Source: Pseudoalteromonas sp. MSK9-3
GTDB lineage: Bacteria; Pseudomonadota; Gammaproteobacteria; Enterobacterales; Alteromonadaceae
Length of the DNA stretch: 32,000 bases
Reading direction: 5' to 3'
Assembly: GCF_003590335.1 (NCBI RefSeq)
Contig: NZ_MIET01000046.1
Location: forward strand, 264,905-296,904
The notes below the pieces were generated by a model that worked only from the letters and a program-made list of their open reading frames with translations, ran no database searches and was not told where the DNA came from. Made by a program: the position numbers and the translations under genes. Positions 445 through 18,599 of the stretch are shown piece by piece (position 1 is the first letter of the stretch; every line of letters starts with the position of its first letter).

Positions 445-472
445 ATTTAACATAACGTAAATTATAGGAGGT
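445..472 (-). other. dif-like Xer recombination site (site A), 11-6-11 architecture
   Basis: The minus strand reads ACCTCCTATAA-TTTACG-TTATGTTAAAT. The right arm is 11/11 identical to the XerD-binding arm of E. coli/Vibrio dif. The left arm ends in ATAA, palindromic to TTAT. The site lies 82 bp upstream of the recombinase start. Confidence 0.55.
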
Positions 473-520
473 GATTTTATATTGTTACGCGCTGTCTATT
501 TAGCTGTGGCTTATATATAA

Positions 521-546
521 TGTCCAATACTAGACAGTATCGGACA
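521..546. promoter_or_regulatory. Imperfect palindrome directly upstream of the recombinase start (operator or recombination core site)
   Basis: TGTCCAATACT-agac-AGTATCGGACA has 11-bp arms with one mismatch. It can also be read as 9-8-9 (TGTCCAATA ctagacag TATCGGACA). It ends 7 nt before the ATG at 554. Confidence 0.4.
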
Positions 547-553
547 TAAATAT

Positions 554-1765
554 ATGCTTTCCCCCTTAGTTGATACACTTAAGCAACTTCGTTACCAAAT
601 TGCCCACATTGAAGATGGCACTTTGACCAACGAATACCCTGAGCTTGAATCATTTTTATCTCATACTGTACGTTCAGTAACTAATGCACGGGATGATATC
701 GAGTTTTTGTATCAGTTTTTATATGTGTATGGGAGAAAATCAGAGGCGACGTTTAATCGTTTTAGAAATGAACTAGAGCGGTTTTATTTATGGGCTTGGG
801 AATGGCGCGCACTATCAGTATTTGAACTCAAGCGAGAAGACATCGAAGCATATGTAGAGTTTGTCGTAGAACCTGACAATCGATGGGTCTCTGACTCCGT
901 CCAATGGCGTTTTAAAGATCATGAAGGTTTACGTATGGTCAATAAGCTGTGGCGCCCATTTGCACATAAAGAAAATGGTGTCAGTCAGCAAACTTTTTCA
1001 GCTATGTTTACAGCTCTAAATGTATTTTATAAATTCGCTATTCTTGAAGAAAAAACATTTACTAACTTTATACCTGTGGTTAAAAAAAATAGCCCTTATT
1101 TAATCGTACAATCTCAAATTAAATTGCCAGATACATTAAGTAATTTACAGTGGGAATATGTGTTTGGTGTTACACGAGATAAATGTGAACAAGATCCAAG
1201 TTTGGAGCGTAATCTATTTACTTTAGCGTGTTTAAAAGGACTGTATTTACGTATATCAGAGTTATCGGAACGACCACAATGGTCGCCGGTTATGTCGCAC
1301 TTTTGGCAAGATCCAGATGGCTTTTGGTATTTAAGGATCATGGGAAAAGGGAATAAATTACGAGATGTCACACTGAGTGAAGATTTCATTTTATATTTAC
1401 GGCGTTATCGGCAATATCGCGCCCTACCCGCATTGCCACGTGTTGATGAGCCCTACCCTATAATTCACAAATTACGTGGTCAAGGGGGTATGAATGTTCG
1501 TCAGATCAGACGTATTGTTCAGCAAAGCTTCGATTTAGCTGTTGACTCTTTAGCAGTCGACGGTTTTTCTGATGAGTCAGAGCAATTAAAAGCTGCAACG
1601 GCACACTGGCTCAGACATACAGGAGCGACCCATGACGCACAACATCGACCGTTAAAGCATTTATCTGAAGATCTAGGGCATGCTAAAATTGCAACGACAG
1701 ACCAAATTTATATTCAAACTAATATTAAAGAACGTGCGAAATCTGGTTCAAAAAGAAAGTTATAA
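554..1765 (+). CDS. Tyrosine site-specific recombinase (Xer-like / phage-integrase family), 403 aa
   Basis: C-terminal catalytic signature is present: LRISEL (Arg I), HWLRHTGATH (H-x-x-R) and LGHAKIATTDQIY (catalytic Tyr). The N-terminal region resembles a SAM-like core-binding domain (ATFNRFRNELERFYLWA). Confidence 0.85.
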   Translation: MLSPLVDTLKQLRYQIAHIEDGTLTNEYPELESFLSHTVRSVTNARDDIEFLYQFLYVYGRKSEATFNRFRNELERFYLWAWEWRALSVFELKREDIEAYVEFVVEPDNRWVSDSVQWRFKDHEGLRMVNKLWRPFAHKENGVSQQTFSAMFTALNVFYKFAILEEKTFTNFIPVVKKNSPYLIVQSQIKLPDTLSNLQWEYVFGVTRDKCEQDPSLERNLFTLACLKGLYLRISELSERPQWSPVMSHFWQDPDGFWYLRIMGKGNKLRDVTLSEDFILYLRRYRQYRALPALPRVDEPYPIIHKLRGQGGMNVRQIRRIVQQSFDLAVDSLAVDGFSDESEQLKAATAHWLRHTGATHDAQHRPLKHLSEDLGHAKIATTDQIYIQTNIKERAKSGSKRKL

Positions 1766-1985
1766 ATAAAAACTTGAGTGACTTTTTATTCATATAATGT
1801 ATTTTATATTATATAAATTTAAATAGTAGGATTTTTTTTGGTTGTTTAAAGGTTGATTTTATACGTTAAGTTTATTTATAAAATTTACTATAAATTGTTT
1901 TTCTTTATTTTAGTGCTATTTTTAGTATTGTTTTTAGTGGTGGAATTTGGCAATAAATTTAAATGATTTTTAAGATTGATTAGCT

Positions 1986-2139
1986 CATTGAACATTGAAC
2001 ATTGAACATTGAACATTGAACATTGAACATTGAACATTGAACATTGAACATTGAACATTGAACATTGAACATTGAACATTGAACATTGAACATTGAACAT
2101 TGAACATTGAACATTGAACTTTGAACTTTGAACTTTAAG
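1986..2139. repeat. Heptanucleotide microsatellite: (CATTGAA)x19 perfect, then (CTTTGAA)x2 and one degenerate unit
   Basis: Counted directly. There are 133 nt of perfect 7-bp periodicity from 1986 to 2118, then variant units to 2139. It lies in the convergent intergenic region between the recombinase gene and the ydiJ-like gene. Confidence 0.97.
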
Positions 2140-2255
2140 GCCGATATTGGCCTAGTGCTGAGTTAAAAGTAACCAATTCCAATCGGCTTACGTTAAACCC
2201 TGTGTTTTTTAAGGTGAATTTGGAAATTGAAGGATTAATCGGCTAAATTTGCATG

Positions 2256-2283
2256 TTATTTATACTTTTTTGTTATGTTAAAT
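2256..2283 (+). other. dif-type half site (site C): exact XerD arm with non-canonical left arm
   Basis: TTATTTATACT-TTTTTG-TTATGTTAAAT. GTTATGTTAAAT (2272-2283) is the perfect 12-bp inverted repeat of ATTTAACATAAC (445-456). Confidence 0.4.
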
Positions 2284-2410: not shown

Positions 2411-5400
2411 TCAATGCGTTATATTTTGTGCAATGTACTCAATTGGGTGTTTAGGCTTTTGGCCTTCATAGCGTTTTACCTGGCTACGACATGAAAATCC
2501 AGTAGACAGTAAAATTGAATCTCTTGATTTATCTATCTCAATTTTCCAAGACATATCATATAACGCTCTTGAGTTTTCTTGGTTTTGAATTTCATGGCCA
2601 TAAGTACCAGCCATACCGCAACATCCAGTACTCGGTGTTGACAAAGATAACCCTAGCTTTGAAAAAATGTCTTTCCAAACCTTACTGGCATTTGGCATTG
2701 CCGTTGTTTCTGTACAATGAGAAAGTAATGTGAATTTCGAGGCTGATTTTTCTTCAGATACAGAAATCCCCTGCCAATCTTGTTGTGAAAACCATTCATG
2801 CGCTAAACTGACTTTAAAGTCACCACATTGCTCGCCCAATATTGTTTTATATTCATCTTTGTAGACCATAACGAGCGATGCATCGAGTCCAATCATTGGA
2901 ATATCATATTGAGAAAGTGAGTTTAAAAACTGACTGGCATTTTTTGCAGCTGTCTTGAACTCTTTTAAAAAACCTTTTACGTGTTGTGCTTTACCATTTG
3001 GTTTGAATGGTAATAAAATTGGTGTTTTGCCAAGAGCGACAACAAGATCTATACATGAAGAAACTAACTCTGCTTCATAAAAAGTTGTAAAAGGGTCTTG
3101 AACAATGAAAACACAGTTCTTTCTTTCAGTCTCAGTTAACGAAGATAATTCGTCACCGTCAAATAAATATTTATGGTGAACTCTGTTATTAACTGAGGGT
3201 ATGCTCAATGTTGGTGTATCGACATAACCAAATATCTTTTTAATTAGAAAGGCTATTGGTTTAGTGTTTACGACTGGATTAATGAATGCGGCACATTTAG
3301 ATAGATATGGTGCAGTCAGTTCAATACTTCCAACTAAGTAATCTTTAAGAGGTCTATTGTATCTACTATGATAAAGATTTAAAAAGCGTGAACGAAATGT
3401 AGGCACGTCTACTTTTATTGGGCAAGCGGTAGTACATGCTTTACACGCTAAACATTCATCCATTGACTCTTTAACTTCATGTGAAAAGTCATACTCTCCT
3501 TTATTTTTTGCTCGAGTATTTAAAAACCTTTCCCACCATGTAATGTCATTCTCTTTATTGATCAATTGCTTTTCAACATCAAGAATATTTACGTCTGCTT
3601 TTTCTTGTAGTCTTAGCCACTCACGAATTAAACTTGCTCGGCCTTTTGGAGAGTGGCGGCGATCTTTCGTCACTTTATAAGACGGGCACATTGGCGAAGA
3701 TTCATCGTAGTTAAAACAAAGTCCGTTACCGTTACAGTTCATGGCATTTTCAAAACTGTCACGAACTTCGATGTCAATTGTCTTATCGAACCAAGCTCTC
3801 TTTTGAGAGTCAACACTTACTAACTCATCTGTACTTTCTAGTGGGGTACAAATTTTTCCTGGGTTTAATCTGTTGTTTTTATCAAATACTGATTTTATTT
3901 TTCGTAATTCAGTAAACAGTGTCTCACCAAAAAAATCGGGACCATATTCGCTGCGGTAACCTTTTCCATGTTCGCCCCACATTAACCCTCTATATTTAGC
4001 TGTTAAAGCCACTACTTGATCCGAAATTTTTCGCAATAATTTTTCTTGTAGTGGATCACTCATATCTAATGCTGGGCGAACATGTAAAACACCAGCATCA
4101 ACATGGCCAAACATTCCGTAGTTTAAATCGTGCGAGTCGAGCAAAGCTCTAAACTCAACAATGAAATCTGCTAAGTTTTCAGGTGGTACGGCGGTGTCTT
4201 CAGCAAATGCGAGCGGTTTTTGTTTTCCTTTTGTGTTACCCAAAAGTCCAACTGCTTTTTTACGCATTGCATATATTTTTAATATATCGGCTTTATCGTT
4301 TATAAGTTGATAACCGATCACCCCTGCTTGCTTATTTGTTATCAAGTCATCTAATTTCTTACACAGTGATGAAATTTTGTCATCCATTTCATTTTCTGTT
4401 TCACCATTAAACTCAACCATATTGAGTCCTTGCATCTCAATGCCTGGAATATTGGTTATTAAGTCCGATACTGAATGCCAAATAATATCTTCTCTTGCCA
4501 AGTTTAATACTTTACTGTCTACAGTTTCTACTGATGTTGCCTTTGCTGAAACAAGAAAAGGTGAGTTTCGAAGCGCTGAATCGAAGCTGTCATATTTAAT
4601 ATTAATCAAAGTTTTAAATGGTGCGATAGGTGTAATATTTAACTTTGCTTCAGTAACAACACCTAACGACCCTTCAGACCCAGTAATGATCCTAGATAAA
4701 TCGAAATTTTCTAGCGTATTATCAAATACGTTTTCTAGGTCATACCCTGTGAGAAATCGGTTTAGCCTAGGGAATTTTTCTAAGATTAATGACCTATTTG
4801 AATGACAGCTATCAATGACTTGTTGATAGATTTGTGACGCCCTGCCTTCTTGGCTTGCAATGACGTGTGCTTTTTCAGTTGATATTCGTCGCGTGTTGAG
4901 TTCGGTGCCGTCGACCAAAAAAGTTTTTAAACCTAAAACATGATCACTAGTCTTTCCGTACACGAGTGAACCTTGTCCAGATGCATCCGTGTTGATCATT
5001 CCCCCCACTGTAGCGCGGTTGCTTGTTGAAAGATCTGGGGCGAAGAAAAAACCATACGGCTTAAGGTAATCATTTAATTGATCTTTTATTACACCCGCTT
5101 GTACTTTTACCCACTTTTCTTCAACATTTATTTCTATGATTTCTCGCATGTGACGCGATAAATCTATCACAATACCTGGCGTGAGTGATTGACCATTAGT
5201 ACCTGTACCACCGCCCCGTGGCCCAAATGTTAATGATAGAAATGGATCTTGTTGCGCACAATGTAATGCTGTTTGAATATCTTTGTTGTTTTTTGGATAT
5301 ATAACAGCTTGAGGGATATTCTGATAGATACTGTTATCAGTAGCCGTGACGAGCCTTGTTGCATAGCTGCTGTCAGTTTCACCTAAAAAACCGTTATTTT

Positions 5401-5467
5401 TTATAAGGTTAAGGTAATCATTTAATAAGGCACTTGCTGAATCTTGTTGATTTATATTGGCAATCAT
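2411..5467 (-). CDS. ydiJ: FAD-binding (PCMH) / 4Fe-4S / CCG-domain oxidoreductase, YdiJ-like (D-2-hydroxyglutarate dehydrogenase type), 1018 aa
   Basis: FAD motif PRGGGTGTNGQS, ferredoxin-type cluster CLACKACTTACP, and a C-terminal CCG motif CCGMAGTYG. The length is the same as I recall for E. coli YdiJ. Confidence 0.85.
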   Translation of the reverse strand: MIANINQQDSASALLNDYLNLIKNNGFLGETDSSYATRLVTATDNSIYQNIPQAVIYPKNNKDIQTALHCAQQDPFLSLTFGPRGGGTGTNGQSLTPGIVIDLSRHMREIIEINVEEKWVKVQAGVIKDQLNDYLKPYGFFFAPDLSTSNRATVGGMINTDASGQGSLVYGKTSDHVLGLKTFLVDGTELNTRRISTEKAHVIASQEGRASQIYQQVIDSCHSNRSLILEKFPRLNRFLTGYDLENVFDNTLENFDLSRIITGSEGSLGVVTEAKLNITPIAPFKTLINIKYDSFDSALRNSPFLVSAKATSVETVDSKVLNLAREDIIWHSVSDLITNIPGIEMQGLNMVEFNGETENEMDDKISSLCKKLDDLITNKQAGVIGYQLINDKADILKIYAMRKKAVGLLGNTKGKQKPLAFAEDTAVPPENLADFIVEFRALLDSHDLNYGMFGHVDAGVLHVRPALDMSDPLQEKLLRKISDQVVALTAKYRGLMWGEHGKGYRSEYGPDFFGETLFTELRKIKSVFDKNNRLNPGKICTPLESTDELVSVDSQKRAWFDKTIDIEVRDSFENAMNCNGNGLCFNYDESSPMCPSYKVTKDRRHSPKGRASLIREWLRLQEKADVNILDVEKQLINKENDITWWERFLNTRAKNKGEYDFSHEVKESMDECLACKACTTACPIKVDVPTFRSRFLNLYHSRYNRPLKDYLVGSIELTAPYLSKCAAFINPVVNTKPIAFLIKKIFGYVDTPTLSIPSVNNRVHHKYLFDGDELSSLTETERKNCVFIVQDPFTTFYEAELVSSCIDLVVALGKTPILLPFKPNGKAQHVKGFLKEFKTAAKNASQFLNSLSQYDIPMIGLDASLVMVYKDEYKTILGEQCGDFKVSLAHEWFSQQDWQGISVSEEKSASKFTLLSHCTETTAMPNASKVWKDIFSKLGLSLSTPSTGCCGMAGTYGHEIQNQENSRALYDMSWKIEIDKSRDSILLSTGFSCRSQVKRYEGQKPKHPIEYIAQNITH

Positions 5468-10584: not shown

Positions 10585-10678
10585 TAATTTTCCTCATTCC
10601 AATGTAGTGTTACCTCACCACGAAAGTATCGTATAGACGTACCGGCTTCAAGGTAAATTTAGTATTTATTTCAGTTAA

Positions 10679-10692
10679 GAACACATCATACT
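10679..10692 (+). other. Putative replication terminator (Ter-like) site 1
   Basis: Exact GAACACATCATACT. The reverse complement AGTATGATGTGTTC resembles E. coli Ter AGTATGTTGTAACT. Confidence 0.6.
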
Positions 10693-11005
10693 AAATTTAG
10701 CGCATTAATGTATCATCTGAACATCTTAATTTATTTAATCTAATCCTTTTAATCAGACCAAAACATATTTAGCTATTGATATGATGAGAGTTAAGTACAC
10801 TCATTTGCGAAATAGATGATTAGCAGTAACTTGAATTGAAGGTTTGGCTGCTTAATGGTTGTTTTTAAAACTGCTAATAATTTTGGACGTGTAACCATTG
10901 AGGAAAAATAATCCAAATGTATGCTAAATGTTTATAAATGAACGACCCTAGAACTGGACCGCTTTAGTTCGAAACATAGACTCTCTTTTTATATTGTGGC
11001 TCCAA

Positions 11006-11194
11006 TCATAAAACTGTCTCTTGTTTACCGAAGTAAACTTCATCTGGTGTAAGTTCATTGGAGCCTTGATTGGCATGCCAGTTATTATGCAGTCTTTTTA
11101 TCAATAAGTTATGAACCGTTACAATATTATTGGTTTTGCCATTGATTAATGTCAAAACGATTATTTTGAATATGTTTTTTAACACAAGGAACAC
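11006..11194 (-). pseudogene. 3' remnant of an integrase-core (rve) transposase/integrase
   Basis: The ORF tail LIKRLHNNWHANQGSNELTPDEVYFGK resembles the conserved end of rve domains (..YN..RPH..L...TP.EVY). There is no upstream catalytic domain. Confidence 0.45.
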
Positions 11195-11203
11195 ATCATA
11201 CTT
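11190..11203 (+). other. Putative Ter-like site 2
   Basis: Exact GAACACATCATACT, in the same orientation. Confidence 0.6.
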
Positions 11204-11325
11204 TATTCGAATAAATATACACTCTCAGCACCGCTATTTAAAAAACATCAATAACCAGTAATAAGCCTTTACGAAACTCAAGTATCGTATGGTGTTGCTT
11301 ACTAAATGATTAACTACTTTTATTT

Positions 11326-11727
11326 GGTGTGTTCAAACGATTAAATACCTCAAACTATGCCTTTAAATGTAAAAAATTTGGAGTTGGTCATAGTACAACC
11401 ATCCTGTAGCTCAACGCAGAATCATCAATATTCGGCTAATCTCAATGCCATCTCAAAATGGCAAAAAACCGAAAGCATGGTGGCCATGGTCCGTTCAAGT
11501 CACTATTCTAATTTAGCAATTGAAACCTGTTTAACCTTAAGACTGTATTCCATTTTCCACAAACACTCTTGGAAGGGTTTTGGAATTCTTTACCCACTAT
11601 GGTGAATATCATATTGCAATCAACCGGTTATTATTGTGAATACAAAAGCAGTAAATATAATGAATGGGCTAGGTATGACAAAATACCAGCAACATAGTTA
11701 ACACTGAAATATTGATTGAAAGTTACC
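11326..11727 (+). mobile_element. Internally deleted IS5-family (IS903-like) element remnant
   Basis: The N-terminal fragment ..HYSNLAIETCLTLRLYSIF..GF resembles IS903-group RYSDLAITTVLVIKRVF.L.LR..QGF. A C-terminal fragment in another frame, NIMNGLGMTKYQQHS*, resembles LN.M...GMP.S. Imperfect terminal inverted repeats start with GGT at both ends. Confidence 0.5.
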
Positions 11728-12139
11728 TATCTGATCAGCAGTGCCTAAGTTAGGTTAGAATTTGAAGTTGTTAGTCTAAGAAGTTGGTTGCGGAAAATAT
11801 ACCTAGTCTATGTGATTATTGGTCTCATAATAATGGACTTAAATTGTCATAAAAAGGATATGAGTATGGAGCAATTAATTTTCATTTTGTTAGCGATCGG
11901 CTTGTCTAAATTACACAGCAATACTATCTCGACTGTTAGATTTAATACAATGTAATAGATCAAACTTTTACTTTCTAATAAGTGAGTTTATATCAATACA
12001 ATTATCGATGTTGTTTTCGGTAAAGTTATACTTTACCGCCCTCTCCCGGCTATAAGTATAAATAGAGTTAAGTTCACTCTCCATTGATGACTATTATCAC
12101 AATAGCAAAAAAGAGATTGTTCTGGTATCATCAGTGAAA

Positions 12140-12153
12140 GAACACATCATACT
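12140..12153 (+). other. Putative Ter-like site 3
   Basis: Exact GAACACATCATACT, in the same orientation. It lies 3 nt from dif-type site B. Confidence 0.6.
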
Positions 12154-12156
12154 ATT

Positions 12157-12184
12157 TCGTTACTTATTTTCAATTATGTTAAAT
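12157..12184 (+). other. dif-type site B in the terminus region: exact XerD arm, divergent left arm
   Basis: TCGTTACTTAT-TTTCAA-TTATGTTAAAT. The right arm matches canonical dif 11/11; the left arm matches GGTGCGCATAA poorly. Confidence 0.4.
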
Positions 12185-13351
12185 TATACAACTTACACAA
12201 AATTCAACTGTCCTACCAAGATTAATATCTTTGAAATTTTTGGTTCTTTTCATAACTCACTTTGTTAAGTTTATTAAAGCTTTTCAAAAATTTGATGAAT
12301 TTTCGTATAAAAATGCATTTCAAAAAAAGAAAATTATCGAAAGCACCATAGTCATGAAGCGAGTACTTCAAAGAGTTCAATTACAATATAGTGACAGTAT
12401 TATCCAGCCACCCTGGAAAAACTTAACTCCAATAAAGGCCACCAATCTTACCTTATTGTGATAGTCGCTTTTGTAAAATTACTATACAATTTCAGATTAA
12501 CAGCTTAAAAATAAACCATATCAACATTCAAAGAGAGTAATTATTAAAACTGACGAGCTATTTATTAAAAATTGCTAACGAACCTGCATTCGCATAATTT
12601 TCATGATATGAAAAATTACGAATAACTACTCAATGCTCCGCTAACTAGCTACCCCTTCAGCAAACGTTAAAAACGTATCAGTGTCGTCACAAGAGATAAG
12701 GTATTTTATATTCCTATTTTCAGTTAATGACTGAATAAAAATATAGATAAGTATTTTTCTTAAAGTTTGTCATTGAGGCCATTTACCAACGACAATCCAA
12801 AACTGAGGAAGTAGTAACCGTGATACAAAGCAGAAAATACTATCATTAAGTTAACCTTTCAATTATGAAAGACCGTATCTTTTAAACACAAGTGAAGGAA
12901 GTAATCCGCTTTCATAGTAAAAACTTAGCTCATTCTATATTTAACACGAAAAGGTGAGAAAGCTGAGGTTTGTAACTTAAAATAAGTTTTTATAACCCAA
13001 AAAGCGTCAATCAACAAAGGTGATATTCCACACTGCTAATTGTAAAGTGGTTTATGTCCTGGTGTCGCTACAACCTAGTCAAATTTAGGTAGTGCCTTTT
13101 TTCATATCGCTCGTTAACACTCAAGAACTATAATAGTAAAAGAGATAACTTATCTCAATACCTACCTGAGCTAAAAGAACATTCATCAATATGTTTAATT
13201 ACTCTCTGCTATTTCCTTGTACTTCTAACATGTAGCTATCGGTTCATTGACCAAGGTACATATTTAAAAATAAGCTTTCAATAAAAATCAATGCTGTCTT
13301 AGTAGAATAAATTCGACCTAAGATAACAATAAATGATAAAATACAGAATAA

Positions 13352-13365
13352 GAACACATCATACT
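13352..13365 (+). other. Putative Ter-like site 4
   Basis: Exact GAACACATCATACT, in the same orientation. Confidence 0.6.
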
Positions 13366-13463
13366 AAACGTTAATTAGTTTTTATATATCGATGTAAACC
13401 TCAGCCAGTTGTCAGAAACAAAATTTAGACTCAAGAGTAACAAACTTGATATAATAAGGAAGA

Positions 13464-13477
13464 GAACACATCATAAG
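13464..13477 (+). other. Putative Ter-like site 5 (variant)
   Basis: GAACACATCATAAG: the last two bases differ, including the C equivalent to E. coli C6. Confidence 0.45.
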
Positions 13478-13527
13478 TAAGCTCGTAGATAAAGAAACAT
13501 CTCGATACGTTTAATGCTCACAAATGT

Positions 13528-13556
13528 AGAACACATCATACTTTAAATGTTATAAT
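13528..13556 (+). promoter_or_regulatory. Putative tus promoter
   Basis: Perfect TATAAT at 13551-13556, with AGAACA 17 bp upstream. Ter-like site 6 fills the spacer. Confidence 0.35.
13529..13542 (+). other. Putative Ter-like site 6, inside the tus promoter
   Basis: Exact GAACACATCATACT. It lies between a weak -35 and the TATAAT at 13551-13556, 50 nt upstream of the tus ATG. Confidence 0.6.
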
Positions 13557-13591
13557 ACACCTATGAACATTACAACTATTTATAATTTAAT

Positions 13592-14473
13592 ATGTCATCA
13601 AGCACCAATCAGTTTAAGCTTAGAGCACATTTTGACCATTTAATGGAGCTTACTTCATTATTTTGTGTCGAATTAGAAAAATCGGATATTATCTCTGCTG
13701 ATTATTATCAACTCCCGAACGTCACAAAAGAATCAGAAGAAAAAGCACCTGAACAAATACAAGTTCAAAAAATAACAGGCAATAAAGCTATTGATAAGAT
13801 TGTTTTTGCTTATAAAGATTTATTTTTAGATGAAAAAGTCAGTGGAAAAGTGCTGCAACGCCACCCAGGTATTATACGTATTAACGACGAAACCCATACT
13901 CTTCAAGCAAGGCTGAAAGAAGTAAATAAAGCAAAAGAAGATTTTAAAAATGCAATTTTACAAATCGAAAATAACGACGCTCGTTTTGAAGCAGTACATA
14001 GTGCAATCCCTAACTTAATGACTTTAGCTGCTTATAGAAAAATACACAGCGAGTTAGCAGAACCATATTCTGTAAGGTTTACATGGATGACAAAACACGC
14101 TACCCGTACTTTAACTAAAGATGCCGCATTAGAAATGCTCAATAAATCTTCAAATTACAATAACCCACGAATGATTGATCAAGAATCTTGGTTATCTCTC
14201 GTACAAAAAGAAAAAGCGCGTGTAGCCAATTTAGCTGAAAAAAGTAAATTAAGAATTAGAAGGCCAACACGAGTATCGCCTGAAATAAATGTTCGATTTA
14301 CTGCAGAAAATAGATATCATGTTAGCGCAGCGTTACCATTTATTCTTTTTAATCCGAGTAAAGATACAAAAATCGGTAGCCTAAAACACTATGAAAAAGT
14401 TGAAAATCATCCAAGAAAGAAAGAATATAACTTTCTCGTAGACAGGATATATCTAGAAAAAGTAAGCGAATAG
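13592..14473 (+). CDS. tus: DNA replication terminus site-binding protein (Tus) homologue, 293 aa
   Basis: Collinear blocks match the remembered E. coli Tus. RFEAVHSAIPNLMTLAAYR aligns with RFEWVHRHLPGLITLNAYR. VRFTWMTKHATRTL aligns with LRFGWANKHIIKNL. SKLRIRRPTRVSPEINVRF aligns with AKLKIKRPVKVQPIARVW. The size is similar (293 vs ~309 aa). Confidence 0.85.
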   Translation: MSSSTNQFKLRAHFDHLMELTSLFCVELEKSDIISADYYQLPNVTKESEEKAPEQIQVQKITGNKAIDKIVFAYKDLFLDEKVSGKVLQRHPGIIRINDETHTLQARLKEVNKAKEDFKNAILQIENNDARFEAVHSAIPNLMTLAAYRKIHSELAEPYSVRFTWMTKHATRTLTKDAALEMLNKSSNYNNPRMIDQESWLSLVQKEKARVANLAEKSKLRIRRPTRVSPEINVRFTAENRYHVSAALPFILFNPSKDTKIGSLKHYEKVENHPRKKEYNFLVDRIYLEKVSE

Positions 14474-14474
14474 C

Positions 14475-15689
14475 TTACTTTTTCACTATTTGTTCTAAGA
14501 TTTCTTCATCAATCACTTCAACATCTTCAACAATACGCTTTCCACCTTGGATTTCAATACGCTTATTATGTTTATTTAAAGTCAGTATTTCATCGCAAAA
14601 CTGTGATGATGGATGCATTTCATAAACGTAATCGATGATCTTGCCTGTATTGTCATCCTTTACATTGCTTATGCTGTAATCAGAAATCGCGCCTTTTTCA
14701 ATCAAATCTTTCATTGTTGTTGTCATATCGCGACGTAAAGCCTTCAATTTATTCTCAACAATTTCATCGGTGGAATAAATTGACCCATACTTTTCCATGA
14801 TTGACAAAAGACGAAAATGATACGTTTTTCCTGGTGCTGCATAGCGCCATAAATGATATAAACGTAACATCATCCAACGTGACAAACCGCGCTTTAATTC
14901 TTGTGCACTATTAAAATAATATCCTTTATACTCTAAATTATCGATCATATTATGAACAAACGCATTCAAACACGCGACACATTTAATGTTGCCACCTTGC
15001 CCCTTTTTACCGCTAAAGTGCAGTGAAGATAAAAAGTTCATATTTGATTCATAGAATGAGTCATCAATATCGGTATTTTTTGTATCCGTTGCTGAGTATT
15101 TGAACGAAAGTTTAGAACCTTGTAACGCTTCTAAAGACTCTTTAATTTGTGGGTAAGGCATTGACTGACCCACGGCTTTGAGTTCTTGAGCTAATTCGTT
15201 CATTGAAAATATTACAGCATATTGAATACCGGACTTAAAATTTATTTTTACAATTTTTCCTTTTGACGCGAGACGAATAAGCGCACGTTCTACTTTTTCT
15301 TCTCTATCAGATGGCCAAACCAGATACTCTAGGTCTTCTCCATCTTTCTTACTACTTACAACAGCCGGGGTTATTTTTATCTCACCTTCATACAAAATAC
15401 CGTCAACTTTTTCTGAGATTCGCCGTGTGATGATCGTTTTTTTAGGCGCTTCTTCTAAAGGAAGTTTTTTATGACCCGAACGGACAAATCGACCCCAAAG
15501 ATCATAGTGATTGAATGTATTAGAATAAGCTCGCAACCCATACGCAGCATTTTCTAATGATATACGAACATCTTTATTATCCGTAAACAGCGCCAAACTT
15601 TCGTTATCAATAGCGCTTTCCACACCATGTATCTGACCCCTTAGTGAATCGGGCAGATTATCAACAGAGATGTTCACCTTTCGGCTCAT
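14475..15689 (-). CDS. Plasmid-type replication initiator (Rep, winged-helix/TrfA-RepA-like), about 404 aa
   Basis: The gene is divergent from parA across an iteron/GATC/DnaA-box region. The likely start is the ATG at 15689, with GGAAG 7 nt upstream; the ORF track extends to a TTG at 15740. The family assignment comes from context and general Rep-like character, not from a recognised motif. Confidence 0.65.
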   Translation of the reverse strand: MSRKVNISVDNLPDSLRGQIHGVESAIDNESLALFTDNKDVRISLENAAYGLRAYSNTFNHYDLWGRFVRSGHKKLPLEEAPKKTIITRRISEKVDGILYEGEIKITPAVVSSKKDGEDLEYLVWPSDREEKVERALIRLASKGKIVKINFKSGIQYAVIFSMNELAQELKAVGQSMPYPQIKESLEALQGSKLSFKYSATDTKNTDIDDSFYESNMNFLSSLHFSGKKGQGGNIKCVACLNAFVHNMIDNLEYKGYYFNSAQELKRGLSRWMMLRLYHLWRYAAPGKTYHFRLLSIMEKYGSIYSTDEIVENKLKALRRDMTTTMKDLIEKGAISDYSISNVKDDNTGKIIDYVYEMHPSSQFCDEILTLNKHNKRIEIQGGKRIVEDVEVIDEEILEQIVKK

Positions 15690-15740
15690 TATTTTACTTC
15701 CAAAATTTATGACAGCTAATAACAACATATTCATGAACAA

Positions 15741-16324
15741 AAGTTAATGATTTAAGTTAGTATAAAACTGATCTATCCAAGTTTTTTTTTTGAGATCGCT
15801 TTTTTACTAACTAGACAAAAATAAAGATCATCTTTTTACTAACTAAGGTTGGTTATTAAGCTTTTTGTGCACAAAACACTGTTTAATTCTGGTTGAAATA
15901 CGGTGTTATTGTATCGATTGTGGATAACTGCACACAATGTTGGTATAGATCAGATCTGTACTTAGGATAGATCCGATCTTTATTTACTTGATCATAAGAA
16001 TCAAAATCGAAATGTTTATAACCATTTGAATTTACTTAGTAAAAATGTGATCTAACGGGTCGGAAATGTGTATAAGTGTGTGGGTAACCTGTTCACTCCT
16101 TTACTTTAAATATAGGAGTTAGTAAAAAGAGGATCCATGAGTACATAAAGATCAGATCTTTACTTCGTACAAATTAGATCTGCTATTTTTAACATTATTC
16201 ATATATATCATATGGTTATGTTCTTTTTAGCAAACCCTATCCTTTAATACCTATATACTTAACCATATTTAATCTTCTTATTTATACTTAGTTAAGTAAT
16301 TTTATATGATGTCTTATATTTTTT
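15741..16324. other. Plasmid-type replication origin (ori of the secondary replicon)
   Basis: Five 18-bp iterons GTTAGTAAAAAnnnGATC lie at 15756-15773 (+), 15794-15811 (-), 15826-15843 (-), 16035-16052 (+) and 16118-16135 (+). There are 13 GATC sites between 15770 and 16180. Three AGATCnGATCTnTACTT-type repeats lie at 15947-15963, 15969-15989 and 16149-16165. An AT-rich tract spans 16186-16324. Confidence 0.8.
15919..15927 (-). promoter_or_regulatory. Perfect DnaA box
   Basis: TGTGGATAA is the reverse complement of the consensus TTATCCACA. It sits centrally between the two iteron groups. Confidence 0.7.
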
Positions 16325-16384
16325 GTGTTTACTACTAAAGTAATGGACATTATAATGATAGGTATCAAGTCAAGGATATCGCGT

Positions 16385-17620
16385 ATGTCAATTAATAACA
16401 AAGCACTTTCAACATATCGTTTATTAAAAGCAACAGCAGAAGTTGCTGAACAATCACTAGAAGGTCGTATACAGCATTATAGGGCCCATTTAAAGACAGA
16501 TGAGAAAGAGCTAAGAACCTATACACAAAAAGCCGCAGCTGATTTGCTTGGATGTAATAATAGAACATTAAAACGACGTCATGACCAAGGTGATTTTGAT
16601 CACCTTAGTATCCAAAAAGGTGCAAACGGGCATTACGCATACACATTGTCAAATATCTTCGCAATGGCCGAAATCTTAGGTGTAGAGGCTGATCAAAGAA
16701 AAACAGGCGATAAACTCCAAGTGATCGTTATCAATTCACTAAAAGGCGGCTGTGGCAAAACCACGTCTTTGGTGAATATTGCAGCTGCTTTAGCCACCAC
16801 AAATATTAAGCGATACAGAATTGGTATTATTGATCTAGACCCACAGGGATCATCATCTAGCTTTTTTCCGGCTAACGATCCTGAGCCGATAACAGTGGGA
16901 GATCTAATGAGAGACTGTATCGAGTTAGATGAAAACGAAACATGGGCTCAGGTTGTATCAAATGCATTTCAAGAAACGCATATCCCAAATATACGCGTTT
17001 TACCATCAGGGATGGACGATTTTTATTTCGAACATGAAACAGCCACTGAACTTAAAGAAAGCTCAGGATATGAACAGACCCGACATTATCACAAACTATT
17101 AGAAAAAGTTATTGCACCTGTTGAGTCACAATTTGATCTAATTCTAATAGATACAGCGCCCTCATTGAATTTTATGTTTTACAATGCGCTCATGGCCTCT
17201 ACAGCAATGCTCATACCAGTCCATCCTGAGGCTGTTGATTTTGACGCTAATAACAAATATCTAAAAAGACTTGGTGAGATTTATCATACAGTCGCCGCAC
17301 TTGGCCATGATGGTTGGGATTTCATGCAATTTTTAGTGACAAACTATGTTAAAGGTAACCATTCTCAAAGAGACATAGTGAAAGATGTAAGAAGTGCTTT
17401 TGGACGACAAGTTATGAGTTACCCAATAAATCATAGCTCTGCAATCACAGCCAGTTCATCATCGTTCAACACTATTTTTGATCAAAAAACATCTGATAGT
17501 TTGGCAAGCAGAGAGTCACTTGTTAAATCACAAGAAAATATTAAAGATGTTGTAGACGAACTAGAAATGTTGATCAGGTCAAATTGGTTATCCACACAAT
17601 CTTCATTAGCACAATCTTAA
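16385..17620 (+). CDS. parA: Type Ia partition ATPase ParA (long N-terminal HTH form), about 411 aa
   Basis: Deviant Walker A KGGCGKTT, plus DLDPQGS and LILIDTAPS. The ATG at 16385 has AAGGA 8 nt upstream; the ORF is open from 16325. Confidence 0.9.
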   Translation: MSINNKALSTYRLLKATAEVAEQSLEGRIQHYRAHLKTDEKELRTYTQKAAADLLGCNNRTLKRRHDQGDFDHLSIQKGANGHYAYTLSNIFAMAEILGVEADQRKTGDKLQVIVINSLKGGCGKTTSLVNIAAALATTNIKRYRIGIIDLDPQGSSSSFFPANDPEPITVGDLMRDCIELDENETWAQVVSNAFQETHIPNIRVLPSGMDDFYFEHETATELKESSGYEQTRHYHKLLEKVIAPVESQFDLILIDTAPSLNFMFYNALMASTAMLIPVHPEAVDFDANNKYLKRLGEIYHTVAALGHDGWDFMQFLVTNYVKGNHSQRDIVKDVRSAFGRQVMSYPINHSSAITASSSSFNTIFDQKTSDSLASRESLVKSQENIKDVVDELEMLIRSNWLSTQSSLAQS

Positions 17621-17636: not shown

Positions 17637-18599
17637 ATGGCTAAAAAACGTAAGAACGATACCCGGTTAGATCCATTTGCAACTGCAGTTGAAGGGAGCA
17701 GTTTAGATGATCTTTTAGATCAAGCGAAAATAGGTGATGTGATCACCATGCCAGCACCTAGTGATCCATTACGTACAATCACATTAACATGCCAAGTAAT
17801 AAAATCAGCCGATATAGAAACGACTACTCAAGTTTATGGTCAAAATAGACGGGAACAAAGTTTATTGAACGAAAAGTCTGTTGCAGATATCTTACCAGCC
17901 ATAAAACACGATAAGAGAAACCTCCACCCGGCTCTGTGCTGGCAAAAAGGTGCTCAGCAATGGGTGTTATCAGGTTCAAGGAGAAGAAAGGCTTGTATGC
18001 TCGCTCAGGCTGACTATGTTGTATTGTCGTCCGCTGATTTTAATGATGATGATGCAAAAGCTCTTGCCATCTCTTCAGATCAATATATTGCACCAAGCTT
18101 ATGGGAACTAGGAAAAGCATATAGCACGACTAAACACAACTTAGTTAATCAAGGTTTGAAAGGCTCTTACCGTGAAATTGCCGCTATTGAAGGCATTTCT
18201 CACACCGCGGTTGCTGATGCTATAAAAGCTTTCGAGGTTATTCCTAAAAGTGTTCTTAGCTTATATCCAACGCCAAATCACTTAGGCAGAGAAGCAGCTA
18301 AAAAGCTCATTAACGCGATTAAAGATAATAAGTCTGCATTTGAACAACAAGTTTGTCATTTTAGTCAACAATCATTCATTAGCGATGAACAAAGCGATGA
18401 AAAACGGGCAATGCTTACAACTCAGTTTTTAACAACATTTGGTGATAAAGCTAATCGCACAGAAGCTTTGTTAGAAAACAAGTTCATTAAATTACAACGT
18501 AATATAAAAAGTGGTGATGTAACAATTAAAATCGACAATAAAGTGTTAACTGATAAGCGCCTTGAACAGCTACAAAAATTGTTAGCTGGCTATAATTAA
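17637..18599 (+). CDS. parB: Plasmid-type partition protein ParB, 320 aa
   Basis: The gene lies immediately downstream of parA. It has a GSRRR arginine patch and an HTH (YREIAAIEGISHTAVADAIKA). Confidence 0.85.
   Translation: MAKKRKNDTRLDPFATAVEGSSLDDLLDQAKIGDVITMPAPSDPLRTITLTCQVIKSADIETTTQVYGQNRREQSLLNEKSVADILPAIKHDKRNLHPALCWQKGAQQWVLSGSRRRKACMLAQADYVVLSSADFNDDDAKALAISSDQYIAPSLWELGKAYSTTKHNLVNQGLKGSYREIAAIEGISHTAVADAIKAFEVIPKSVLSLYPTPNHLGREAAKKLINAIKDNKSAFEQQVCHFSQQSFISDEQSDEKRAMLTTQFLTTFGDKANRTEALLENKFIKLQRNIKSGDVTIKIDNKVLTDKRLEQLQKLLAGYN

Follow-up and report, generated by a model that had tools for sequence, protein, structure and literature searches.

A chromid dif2 locus of Pseudoalteromonas and its association with a Xer/Cre-like recombinase and a candidate palindromic site

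The segment at positions 445-2283 of a 32,000-nucleotide stretch of DNA from Pseudoalteromonas sp. MSK9-3 (contig NZ_MIET01000046.1; the window) is bounded by a perfect 12-bp inverted repeat, ATTTAACATAAC (445-456) and GTTATGTTAAAT (2272-2283), and carries a gene for a tyrosine recombinase, here called Rec. A first-pass annotation of the sequence had read this segment as an invertible module that resembles the pdif modules of Acinetobacter plasmids. Our analysis favours another reading, to which we assign a probability of roughly 0.6, in which the segment is the terminus (dif2) locus of a chromid together with a Xer/Cre-like recombinase module that is coupled to dif, and is neither mobile nor invertible. 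The module consists of the rec gene and a 28-bp palindrome (PAL) that lies upstream of it. Rec and PAL apparently form an undescribed recombinase and site pair, which is coupled to dif and copied by phages of the IMEX type (integrative mobile elements exploiting Xer). No description of either was found in the literature through a string search with a 9-mer of the PAL arm, for which the papers listed were all unrelated, and term searches within papers on Pseudoalteromonas, dif and IMEX.

The dif2 site and its replicon

The left boundary of the segment, site A (445-472, minus strand), contains a XerD arm at 445-455, a central hexamer at 456-461 and a XerC arm at 462-472. Its minus-strand sequence, ACCTCCTATAA-TTTACG-TTATGTTAAAT, has the complete 11-6-11 layout of a dif site. 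In P. haloplanktis TAC125, dif1 is ACAACCTATAA-TTTATA-TTATGTTAAAT and dif2 is ACAGCCCATAA-ATTACG-TTATGTTAAAT, and both xerC and xerD are located on chromosome 1 (Carnoy & Roten, PLoS One 2009, PMC2731167). The XerC arm of site A is identical to that of TAC125 dif1 at 9 of 11 positions, and its central hexamer matches that of TAC125 dif2 at 5 of 6. This agreement with the published sites bears out the full dif layout that had been recognised in the first-pass annotation. Site A is intergenic and lies near the GC-skew maximum, 15.3 kb from the spacer between repA and parA. Because site A has the same XerD arm, a XerC arm of the type seen in the genus, a hexamer of the dif2 type and this distance to the repA-parA spacer, we identify it as dif2, the predicted dimer-resolution site of the chromid, which is already annotated in the genus.

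With the chromosomal dif sites served by XerC and XerD, and specifically with Pseudoalteromonas dif2, site A shares the 28-bp 11-6-11 organisation, the exact XerD arm and a XerC arm of the form ..CC[C/T]ATAA. It is likewise non-coding and located at the skew switch, approximately 15 kb from ori2, and nothing about it is materially different. Orientation relative to the adjoining genes varies by clade. Among 80 related loci taken from species-representative genomes, which form the comparison set used throughout, a full dif2 is found approximately 100-110 bp upstream of rec in minus orientation in P. citrea, P. peptidolytica and one other locus, as in the window. The P. phenolica group has it in plus orientation at a distance of approximately 116 bp, and in a large non-pigmented clade it is approximately 780 bp upstream, also in plus orientation and with a small gene in between. 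The full dif2 of P. xiamenensis is 9 kb upstream of rec. Judging from homology and from the literature, XerC and XerD encoded on chromosome 1 would resolve chromid dimers at site A.

The window corresponds to the ori2/ter2 region of a P. citrea-group chromid, with tus, repA, parAB and rmuC. The tus gene (13592-14473; Pfam Ter, PF05472) is followed by a putative repA, a 421-amino-acid open reading frame (ORF) on the minus strand (14475-15740), and by the ori2 spacer (15741-16324), which separates repA from parA2 (16325-17620; Pfam ParA). A parB-like gene, a 320-amino-acid ORF (17637-18599), directly follows parA2, and an SNF2 helicase, a response regulator and RmuC are also encoded in the window according to Pfam. 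Passages of Xie et al. (mBio 2021, PMC7858055) describe a tus-repA-parA2B2-ywqA-rmuC cluster surrounding ori2 of the Pseudoalteromonas chromid, and the order tus-repA-parAB-helicase-rmuC in the window agrees with the cluster described there. The presence of tus, repA and the parA2/parB-like pair therefore identifies the replicon as a chromid. An origin in Acinetobacter, and with it a pdif context, is ruled out by the homologues and by this gene cluster, which are those of the Pseudoalteromonas chromid. Cumulative GC skew reaches its maximum at approximately 2-3 kb and its minimum at approximately 16-17 kb of the window, and the short arm from ori2 to the terminus therefore spans approximately 15 kb. 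In the part of Xie et al. that lists these replicons (Table S3b), dif2 is approximately 15 kb from ori2 in most of the chromids.

The recombinase, its candidate site and the proposed coupling to dif

The rec gene (554-1765, plus strand) encodes a 403-amino-acid Xer/Cre-like tyrosine recombinase (Pfam Phage_integrase, E = 1.4e-9). Every one of the 80 loci contains rec, and no empty site was seen among them. The right-hand neighbours, which encode a FAD/Fe-S (flavin adenine dinucleotide/iron-sulphur) oxidoreductase, ppsA and ppsR, are retained in 62 of the 80, and the left-hand DNA is highly variable. Practically all Pseudoalteromonas species have a homologue with 73-98% identity, which frequently lies on a contig of 0.8-1.3 Mb or on a record named "chromosome 2" or "plasmid", and the closest is that of P. 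citrea DSM 8771 (97%). An alignment (A1) that spans Rec sequences from Pseudoalteromonas, Psychrobium, Thalassotalea and Colwelliaceae contains the invariant motifs LRISEL (R233), GKGNKxR (K268), HWLRHTGA (H351 and R354) and LGH (H376), as well as Y386. By likeness to the motifs of XerD, we take these residues to be the catalytic R-K-H-R-H-Y set.

Rec falls far below the curated equivalog cut-offs of the NCBIfam models for XerC (TIGR02224; score 67.8, cut-off 335), XerD (TIGR02225; 51.6, cut-off 329.6) and XerS (NF003462; 25.6, cut-off 267). An integron integrase acting at attI was also rejected, given a score of 26.5 against the IntI model (cut-off 265) and left-flank genes that are not cassettes. 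PHROGs returned only generic integrase matches, and a PDB profile search with A1 gave nothing at E <= 0.001. The AlphaFold model of Rec (pLDDT, the predicted local distance difference test, 73.8; C-terminus poorly modelled) has XerD, XerA, XerH and Cre as its top Foldseek matches, so that the predicted fold is nearest to simple two-domain recombinases and not to arm-binding phage integrases. Nor does Rec resemble the integrase of a prophage in its setting, as no phage genes lie between site A and the right-hand boundary and the gene is universal in the genus.

Full-length relatives of Rec with 34-44% identity are found, among the plasmid matches listed, in Alteromonas, Agarilytica and Teredinibacter, and further ones in Pseudomonas (pQBR103-type), Legionella and Coxiella (QpH1). 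Although 1483 plasmid records match at E <= 1e-8, only those with 34-44% identity were taken as full-length relatives. The broad count was discarded as generic tyrosine-recombinase similarity, since it includes 577 Klebsiella matches of approximately 25% identity that correspond to the 'tnpR' of Tn4401. The plasmid-borne relatives fit a plasmid-maintenance heritage of the plasmid-derived chromid. Taken together, the comparisons indicate that Rec is a resident, conserved chromid gene product distinct from XerC, XerD and XerS.

PAL, ATGTCCAATAC-TAGACA-GTATCGGACAT (520-547, plus strand), is a 28-bp imperfect palindrome of 11-6-11 layout that ends 6 bp before the rec start codon. Aligned rec upstream regions give the consensus (A/T)(T/A)GTCCAATAC-TAGACA-GTATCGGAC(A/T)T. 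A full PAL is located upstream of rec in 56 of the 80 loci, inside DNA that is otherwise unalignable. Its arms are conserved, and its 6-bp spacer varies among close relatives (TAGACA, TAAACA, TAATCA, TAACCA and TAGTCA). The first-pass annotation had compared this locus to single-recombinase Xer systems in which the recombinase gene abuts its site, and the analogy stands, but the abutting site is PAL and not dif. Eight further species retain the gene-proximal PAL arm only, with the distal arm replaced by unrelated sequence and rec intact. From their sequences, these replacements look like crossover products at PAL.

Palindromes with the same 11-6-11 layout are also found upstream of Rec homologues of approximately 41-53% identity in other genera, and the distance from palindrome to gene in lineages other than that of the window is 13-210 bp. 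The variant in Psychrobium is ATGTCCAATAC-TCTTAA-GTATTGGACAT, and that on an Alteromonas mediterranea megaplasmid is ATGTCTAATAC-TTGTTA-GTATTAGACA. Thalassotalea fonticola and a Colwelliaceae genome share the variant ATGTCCGTTAA-TGTTAA-TTAGTGGACAT, which is the same in both although the flanks are unrelated, and the Colwelliaceae variant had no match in IMG/VR. Neighbours of the palindrome and rec in those other genera include housekeeping genes, pqiAB and an M23 peptidase gene, with no XerD arm close by. Of the genes examined beside the rec-upstream palindromes, none except rec is found repeatedly, and the arms change with the Rec lineage. For these two reasons PAL is the predicted binding and core site of Rec. 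Directly before PAL a TATAAT (-10-like) box can be read, although a consensus promoter scan was uninformative and did not list it. Because PAL sits between this box and the start codon, Rec binding at PAL probably also autoregulates rec.

Several other identities for PAL were considered and rejected. It has no convincing likeness to the Ter core that is bound by Tus, which is GTTGTAAC in E. coli, and it is palindromic, occurs in phages and is located upstream of rec genes far from termini. A protelomerase target would require a self-complementary centre, which the central 6 bp of PAL do not form, and both spacing and motif are unsuited to a LexA box.

One PAL half-site, TAAGTCCGATACTGA (4460-4474, plus strand), lies within the FAD-oxidoreductase gene (2411-5467, minus strand), 3.9 kb from PAL, where it covers codons 332-336 (S-V-S-D-L). 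Across 62 species these codons have the lowest synonymous entropy of the gene (0.23); the non-overlapping window that ranks next has 0.54, and the mean per codon is 0.74. Wobble positions in the half-site are invariant in approximately 53 of the 62 species, and its 13-mer equals the PAL arm of the non-pigmented clade. This pattern indicates that the intragenic half-site is under selection at the DNA level.

PAL recurs beside dif on both replicons. In the window, an unconserved spacer (473-519) separates it from the XerC arm of site A, with a gap of 49 bp to the GTCC of PAL. When IMG/VR was scanned for the palindrome, 43 contigs were found to contain it, 11 of which include rec and are chromid fragments. 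Approximately 20 others lack rec. Their PAL, with TAGACG (or TAGGCG) as its spacer, is separated by 42-62 bp from the XerC arm of a complete dif site. The central hexamer of this dif is mostly the dif1-type TTTATA, and a CheY-like response-regulator gene is present on the other side. A "transcriptional regulator 217 bp away" has been reported for dif1 of TAC125 (Carnoy & Roten 2009, PMC2731167), which agrees with this neighbour, and we read the rec-less loci as chromosome-1 dif1 sites with IMEX prophages. The dif2 of the window has the same geometry, with XerD arm, centre, XerC arm, 49-bp gap and PAL.

The gap between PAL and the XerC arm is 31, 41-43, 49-53 or 62 bp at 29 sites that represent 18 sequence-divergent spacer clusters. 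The gaps cluster at 31, 42, 52 and 62 bp, and their phasing gives a Rayleigh R of 0.8 at periods of 10-10.5 bp, a value that is no more than indicative because the loci were found via a PAL search and the lineages are not independent. P. xiamenensis has a complete PAL beside its dif2, 9 kb from rec, with a gap of 21 bp. As judged from these alignments, gap length is quantised in helical turns, which would be the signature of two protein complexes that face each other.

Phages that integrate at dif carry PAL as well. Phage contigs of 5.5-7 kb (L089, L093, L104, L109, L122, L125 and L126) have a PAL with the spacer TGAATA. The free phage form (e.g. L093) has this PAL beside an attP in which a 12-bp centre joins a XerC arm to a degenerate XerD arm, and the integrated copies L109 and L125 have the phage PAL 31 bp from the XerC arm. 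L125 encodes a rolling-circle replication initiator, a single-stranded DNA-binding protein, a coat protein and Zot, and is thus an integrated inovirus. Its junctions place the crossover inside TTATAGG of the XerC arm, and each end of the prophage retains an intact PAL, that of the host (TAGACG) at one and that of the phage (TGAATA) at the other. The chromid locus L021 has the same arrangement at dif2, with the IMEX located between dif2 and PAL. The TGAATA spacer is also that of the PAL in a second phage type (L107, L118 and L121; remnant in L050), in which the 3' end of a Cro/CI-like repressor gene abuts a dif-like site. None of the phage-type contigs with this spacer carries rec, and the TGAATA-spacer PAL was not found in the GenBank phage collection. 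For dif-type Pseudoalteromonas phages of the PM2-like, double jelly-roll (DJR) kind, passages of PMC12715192 describe a 17-bp attP made up of the XerD arm and the centre, together with a p15/p16 lysogeny module, and the term-searched passages of that paper held no mention of PAL.

Spacers of PAL differ between chromosome 1, the chromid and the phages. Recombination at PAL, if it takes place, would therefore be restricted to identical (sister) copies. The central regions of dif1 and dif2 in Vibrio follow the same logic, by which only identical copies recombine.

Additional features were observed at some of these loci. Approximately 100 bp upstream of rec, L008 and L021 contain a phage-type hybrid site, CTCAACATAAC followed by 12 bp and AATTATGGGG, beside the chromid PAL, and L021 (1065-1185) also has an intact dif2 and a second PAL 6.9 kb to the left. 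A Cro/CI-like repressor gene (C-terminus ..KKISAACVA..) ends exactly at the XerC arm of dif2 in several species of the non-pigmented clade (L015, L031, L044, L056, L058 and L077). This repressor matches the terminal gene of a larger type of dif-integrating prophage that encodes a 663-amino-acid replication protein (L118, 3240-3800; L050, 6700-7230), and the repressor-bearing dif2 loci look like PM2-like IMEX elements or their remnants. Draft assemblies often break approximately 60-1200 bp upstream of rec, at PAL and dif2 (L003, L013, L019, L034, L035, L042, L044, L052, L054-L056, L255 and L256), and two independent metagenome assemblies end at the same base. These breaks suggest that this position has repeats in common with chromosome 1 or is heterogeneous for prophages.

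We propose that Rec and PAL form a self-contained Xer/Cre-like module of the kind found on plasmids, in which a Rec dimer would occupy the two 11-bp arms of PAL. On each of the two replicons a PAL copy flanks the XerC arm of dif in helical phase, and phages that integrate at dif bring a PAL of their own next to attP. Recombination of identical PAL copies by Rec would mean multimer resolution. Alternatively, Rec might assist Xer recombination, either as an accessory protein or in synapsis. A more far-reaching version of this proposal, which is tentative and on the whole doubtful, makes Rec and PAL a third, hitherto unrecognised component of the Pseudoalteromonas Xer machinery. A Rec dimer bound at PAL, on the same helical face as XerC, would then control synapsis or catalysis at dif1 and dif2, the phage PAL next to attP would allow an IMEX to be recruited to or licensed at the host dif, and the intragenic half-site and the orphan XerD arm described below would belong to the same nucleoprotein architecture of the terminus.

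A number of observations weigh against the coupling of a Rec/PAL module to dif. We infer Rec binding and recombination at PAL from comparison, and half-PAL sites with an intact rec fit an operator better than an essential recombination site. The phasing statistic carries the limit given above. Coupling is not universal on the chromid, because in the non-pigmented clade PAL is located approximately 700 bp from dif2 and on its XerD side, and the XerC side is variable and has no PAL. Thalassotalea and Colwelliaceae have rec and PAL with no adjoining XerD arm; the Thalassotalea module is at 0.97 Mb of a 4.9-Mb record, and no XerD arm is nearby. A Cro/CI-like repressor gene and the operon for early replication flank PAL in L118-type phages, a position in which a phage operator would be expected. 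Finally, related palindromes occur in metagenomes, mostly in the company of neither rec nor dif.

These related palindromes, ATGTCCGCTAA-N6-TTAGCGGACAT, were found at no fewer than 120 loci (at least 120; L128-L247, e.g. L129, L178 and L214) on metagenome contigs that are, judging by their names, mostly from soil or rhizosphere. Their spacers fall into the classes TGGCAC, TGACCC and TGGCCC, and some have two extra direct half-sites beside the core and resemble a resolution site with accessory arms. Among the matches listed, 3 of 120 have a rec homologue and 0 of 120 have a dif-like site within 150 bp, which rules out an extension of the coupling between PAL and dif to this group.

Orphan XerD arms and alternative explanations

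The window contains three exact copies of the XerD arm TTATGTTAAAT, at 445-455 (minus), 2273-2283 (plus) and 12174-12184 (plus). In 100 dinucleotide-preserving shuffles the mean was 0.15 copies of this 11-mer and none of the shuffled sequences reached three, and allowing one mismatch across the window gave no additional sites. Thus, the 12-bp inverted repeat and the three exact arms of the first-pass annotation were recovered, and their number is above the shuffle expectation. The repeat measures 11 bp and not 12 in P. citrea DSM 8771 (L001), and its twelfth base is therefore incidental.

The right boundary, site C (TTTTTG-TTATGTTAAAT; 2267-2283, plus strand), is an orphan XerD half-site. Between it and the 3' end of the FAD-oxidoreductase gene lie 128 bp (2284-2411). 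Its extended sequence, TTATTTATACT-TTTTTG-TTATGTTAAAT, contains no recognisable XerC arm. An exact 11-mer in plus orientation is present approximately 37-145 bp from the 3' end of the same gene in 24 loci, and its left flank in these 24 loci contains neither conserved sequence nor a left half-site. The distance from site C to the rec stop codon ranges from 4 to more than 3000 bp across loci. In P. xiamenensis, site C is present in addition to the full dif2 elsewhere. Because it coexists with a full dif2 and its left flank is not conserved, site C is best read as an independently selected XerD half-site and not as a degenerate dif2. On the evidence of this conservation, it appears to be a separate element under strong purifying selection, and it could be an IMEX-type attachment junction that has been kept for a function, or a XerD site of the kind known as XDS (XerD-binding sites).

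The third copy, site B (12174-12184, plus strand), lies between a 3-deoxy-D-arabino-heptulosonate 7-phosphate (DAHP) synthase gene and tus, and in TCGTTACTTAT-TTTCAA-TTATGTTAAAT a XerC arm is again not recognisable. The first-pass annotation had placed this arm in the terminus region. The copy is indeed exact, but it is located on the origin side, upstream of tus, and not in the terminus. Site B falls within a 3-kb spacer (10585-13591) that is AT-rich (approximately 31% GC) and has no ORF of at least 100 amino acids. This spacer had no match among the fetched loci, and the equivalent stretch in P. xiamenensis is only 336 bp. In such AT-rich DNA site B may be a chance occurrence (P of approximately 0.1) or an IMEX scar. 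The spacer may represent decayed foreign DNA, and an exact-protein look-up with the DAHP synthase of the window gave no match.

An ancient IMEX, since domesticated, could have brought Rec and PAL to dif2, with site C as its distal junction and a later inversion of dif2 in the citrea lineage. We consider this history unlikely, although several observations are in its favour. The phenolica group has the order dif2(+)-PAL-rec-XerD arm(+), in which the two XerD arms are direct repeats 1.3 kb apart, and the attP of PM2-like Pseudoalteromonas phages consists of a XerD arm plus the central region according to the passages of PMC12715192 cited above. In addition, the IMEX prophages L125 and L021 have integrated exactly between dif and PAL and bring a PAL of their own, and the relatives of Rec are plasmid-borne. 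However, no phage contig with the TGAATA-spacer PAL carries rec, the gene is syntenic and present throughout the genus (no empty site in the 80 loci), and the Colwelliaceae homologues occupy a stable housekeeping context with no dif. A mere scar would also not be expected to remain exact at 11 of 11 positions in 24 loci with randomised flanks. The segment of the window itself differs from an IMEX in its inverted boundary sites, its recombinase gene and its fixation in the genus, and direct repeats are seen only in the phenolica group.

It is rather less likely that PAL is the operator of a helix-turn-helix (HTH) regulator, such as a host or phage repressor, and that its proximity to rec and dif is a leftover of phage regulatory DNA. 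The position of PAL in the L118-type prophages, the half-PAL sites kept upstream of intact rec genes and the similar soil-contig palindromes with no rec nearby would all be accounted for. However, there is no HTH gene beside PAL at the chromosome-1 dif or at dif2 of the window, and the PAL that precedes rec in Psychrobium, in Colwelliaceae and on the Alteromonas plasmid has none beside it either. The recurrence of rec alone among the neighbours examined, with arms that vary by Rec lineage, points to Rec as the binding partner, and the combination of an 11-6-11 layout, conserved arms and a variable spacer characterises tyrosine-recombinase core sites.

Comparably improbable is the proposal that the orphan arms at sites C and B function like the XDS of B. 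subtilis, several copies of which lie in the terminus region and at which XerD acts without XerC to unload Smc-ScpAB. Strong selection on site C as a bare XerD arm would be expected under this proposal, and Smc-ScpAB is encoded in Pseudoalteromonas according to the relevant passages of Xie et al. (PMC7858055). In B. subtilis, XerD at XDS is known to unload SMC (Karaboja et al. 2021, cited in a passage of PMC11894783). On the other side, the non-pigmented clade has no extra XerD arm within 17 kb, there are merely one to two orphan arms per locus, and site B is not conserved.

The comparison across strains and species leaves little room for an invertible segment. One orientation is seen in the window, in P. 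citrea DSM 8771 and in a metagenomic scaffold of 98% identity (L257), and a relative of 91% identity (L255/L256) has the same orientation for PAL, rec and site C; its contigs start approximately 30 bp upstream of PAL and hence do not include the dif2 region. The inverted layout of sites A and C is confined to the citrea lineage, and sites of the two types are elsewhere direct repeats or kilobases (10 kb) apart. The central hexamers of site A (TTTACG) and site C (TTTTTG) differ at 2 of 6 positions. These comparisons suggest that the inverted repeat is a lineage-specific juxtaposition, a by-product of two XerD-binding elements in opposite orientation.

The pdif-like or invertible module of the first-pass annotation, in which XerC/XerD or the 403-amino-acid recombinase would recombine sites A and C, is thus highly improbable: two exact XerD arms do face outward, and the left flank does diverge between close relatives right at site A, but site C has no XerC arm and a different hexamer, orientation is fixed in the citrea group, rec is present in every locus and has the same right-hand neighbours in most of them, the two types of site are direct or far apart in other species, and the conserved site that adjoins the recombinase gene is PAL and not a XerD arm. 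As dif2 was already known, the finding as first stated adds little, and its mechanism is wrong.

A hint of past rearrangement at the left junction was nevertheless well founded. Homology with P. citrea DSM 8771 starts at window position 417, 28 bp to the left of the XerD arm, and in the minus-strand ORF at 1-170 no start codon precedes a GTG at approximately 102. Positions 1-416 are unrelated to P. citrea DSM 8771 and are shared with the scaffold L257, an indication of strain-level DNA turnover directly beyond the XerD arm of dif2.

Microsatellites are a further variable feature of these loci. Tandem Repeats Finder (TRF) detects a heptanucleotide repeat, (CATTGAA) x 21.1, at 1986-2133 between the convergent rec and FAD-oxidoreductase genes and near site C, and the copy number is 21 in the window and approximately 13 in P. 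citrea DSM 8771, with the repeat absent from the 91%-identity relative L255. Repeats of other units, (GCTGATA)n, (CTGACAA)n and (CTTACGG)n, lie immediately left of the dif2 XerC arm in other species (L033, L041, L043, L047 and L052), such that both unit and copy number vary by species. P. citrea (L001, 9320-9530) also contains a 9-bp repeat, (TTAATTATT)n.

Relation to known systems and implications

The proposed coupling of Rec and PAL to dif has partial parallels among known recombination systems. As in the single-recombinase Xer systems XerS/difSL and XerH/difH, the Rec gene adjoins a palindromic site with conserved arms and a free spacer. However, Rec lies outside the XerS, XerC and XerD models and coexists with XerC and XerD rather than replacing them, and the genus keeps canonical dif1 and dif2, with PAL copies that are located beside dif rather than being dif. 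In a further difference, the Colwelliaceae module has no XerD arm close to it. Like the recombinases of Cre/loxP-type plasmid and phage modules, Rec has two domains and a full catalytic set, its relatives reside on megaplasmids and the chromid is plasmid-derived. Recombination between copies belongs to those modules, whereas Rec and PAL are known from comparison.

A protein-binding element on the XerC-arm side of the core site is also found at cer and psi, whose accessory sequences lie on that side and comprise approximately 180 bp bound by PepA with ArgR or ArcA. As with PAL, the constraints on distance suggest a defined nucleoprotein architecture. PAL differs in that it is a single 28-bp palindrome 21-62 bp away, its proposed binder is a tyrosine recombinase and it is present at a chromosomal dif.

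The SCre/SloxP system from a plasmid of Shewanella sp. ANA-3 was compared as well. The SloxP arms, ..GTCCGATA and TATCGGACAT.., share 8-10 bases with the PAL arms, in a 13-8-13 layout as against the 11-6-11 of PAL. SloxP was located at 100% identity in NC_008573.1 (260248-260281; L248/L249), and in BLASTP Rec showed no detectable similarity to either of the two recombinase genes that lie within 15 kb of this site, so that Rec was rejected as a SCre homologue. The resemblance of the arms may be a coincidence or a convergent site preference.

Acinetobacter pdif modules also have inverted Xer-type arms around a short segment. The window differs in that one boundary is merely a half-site and the cargo is a resident recombinase gene, and its segment was not found in another context, as rec is on the chromid in all identifiable cases. 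The description as a pdif-like module was therefore not upheld: rec is syntenic across the genus, and the parts of the segment are in direct orientation or far apart elsewhere. IMEX elements, including CTX/VGJ-type inoviruses and PM2-like DJR phages, do integrate at these dif sites, as in L125 and L021, and in the passages of the phage literature cited above the PM2-like phages have attachment sites with a XerD arm only, like site C. The IMEX phages found here have their own PAL next to attP, a feature for which we found no description.

New here is a tyrosine recombinase present throughout the genus with its own candidate core site, copies of which are positioned in helical phase by the XerC arm of dif on both replicons and have also been copied by two unrelated groups of dif-integrating phages. 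If functional, PAL would be, to our knowledge, the first protein-bound accessory site at a chromosomal dif. Functional coupling would add a new layer to how Xer-exploiting phages find and control their integration site. It would also bear on termination and dimer resolution in a plasmid-derived chromid that replicates almost unidirectionally.

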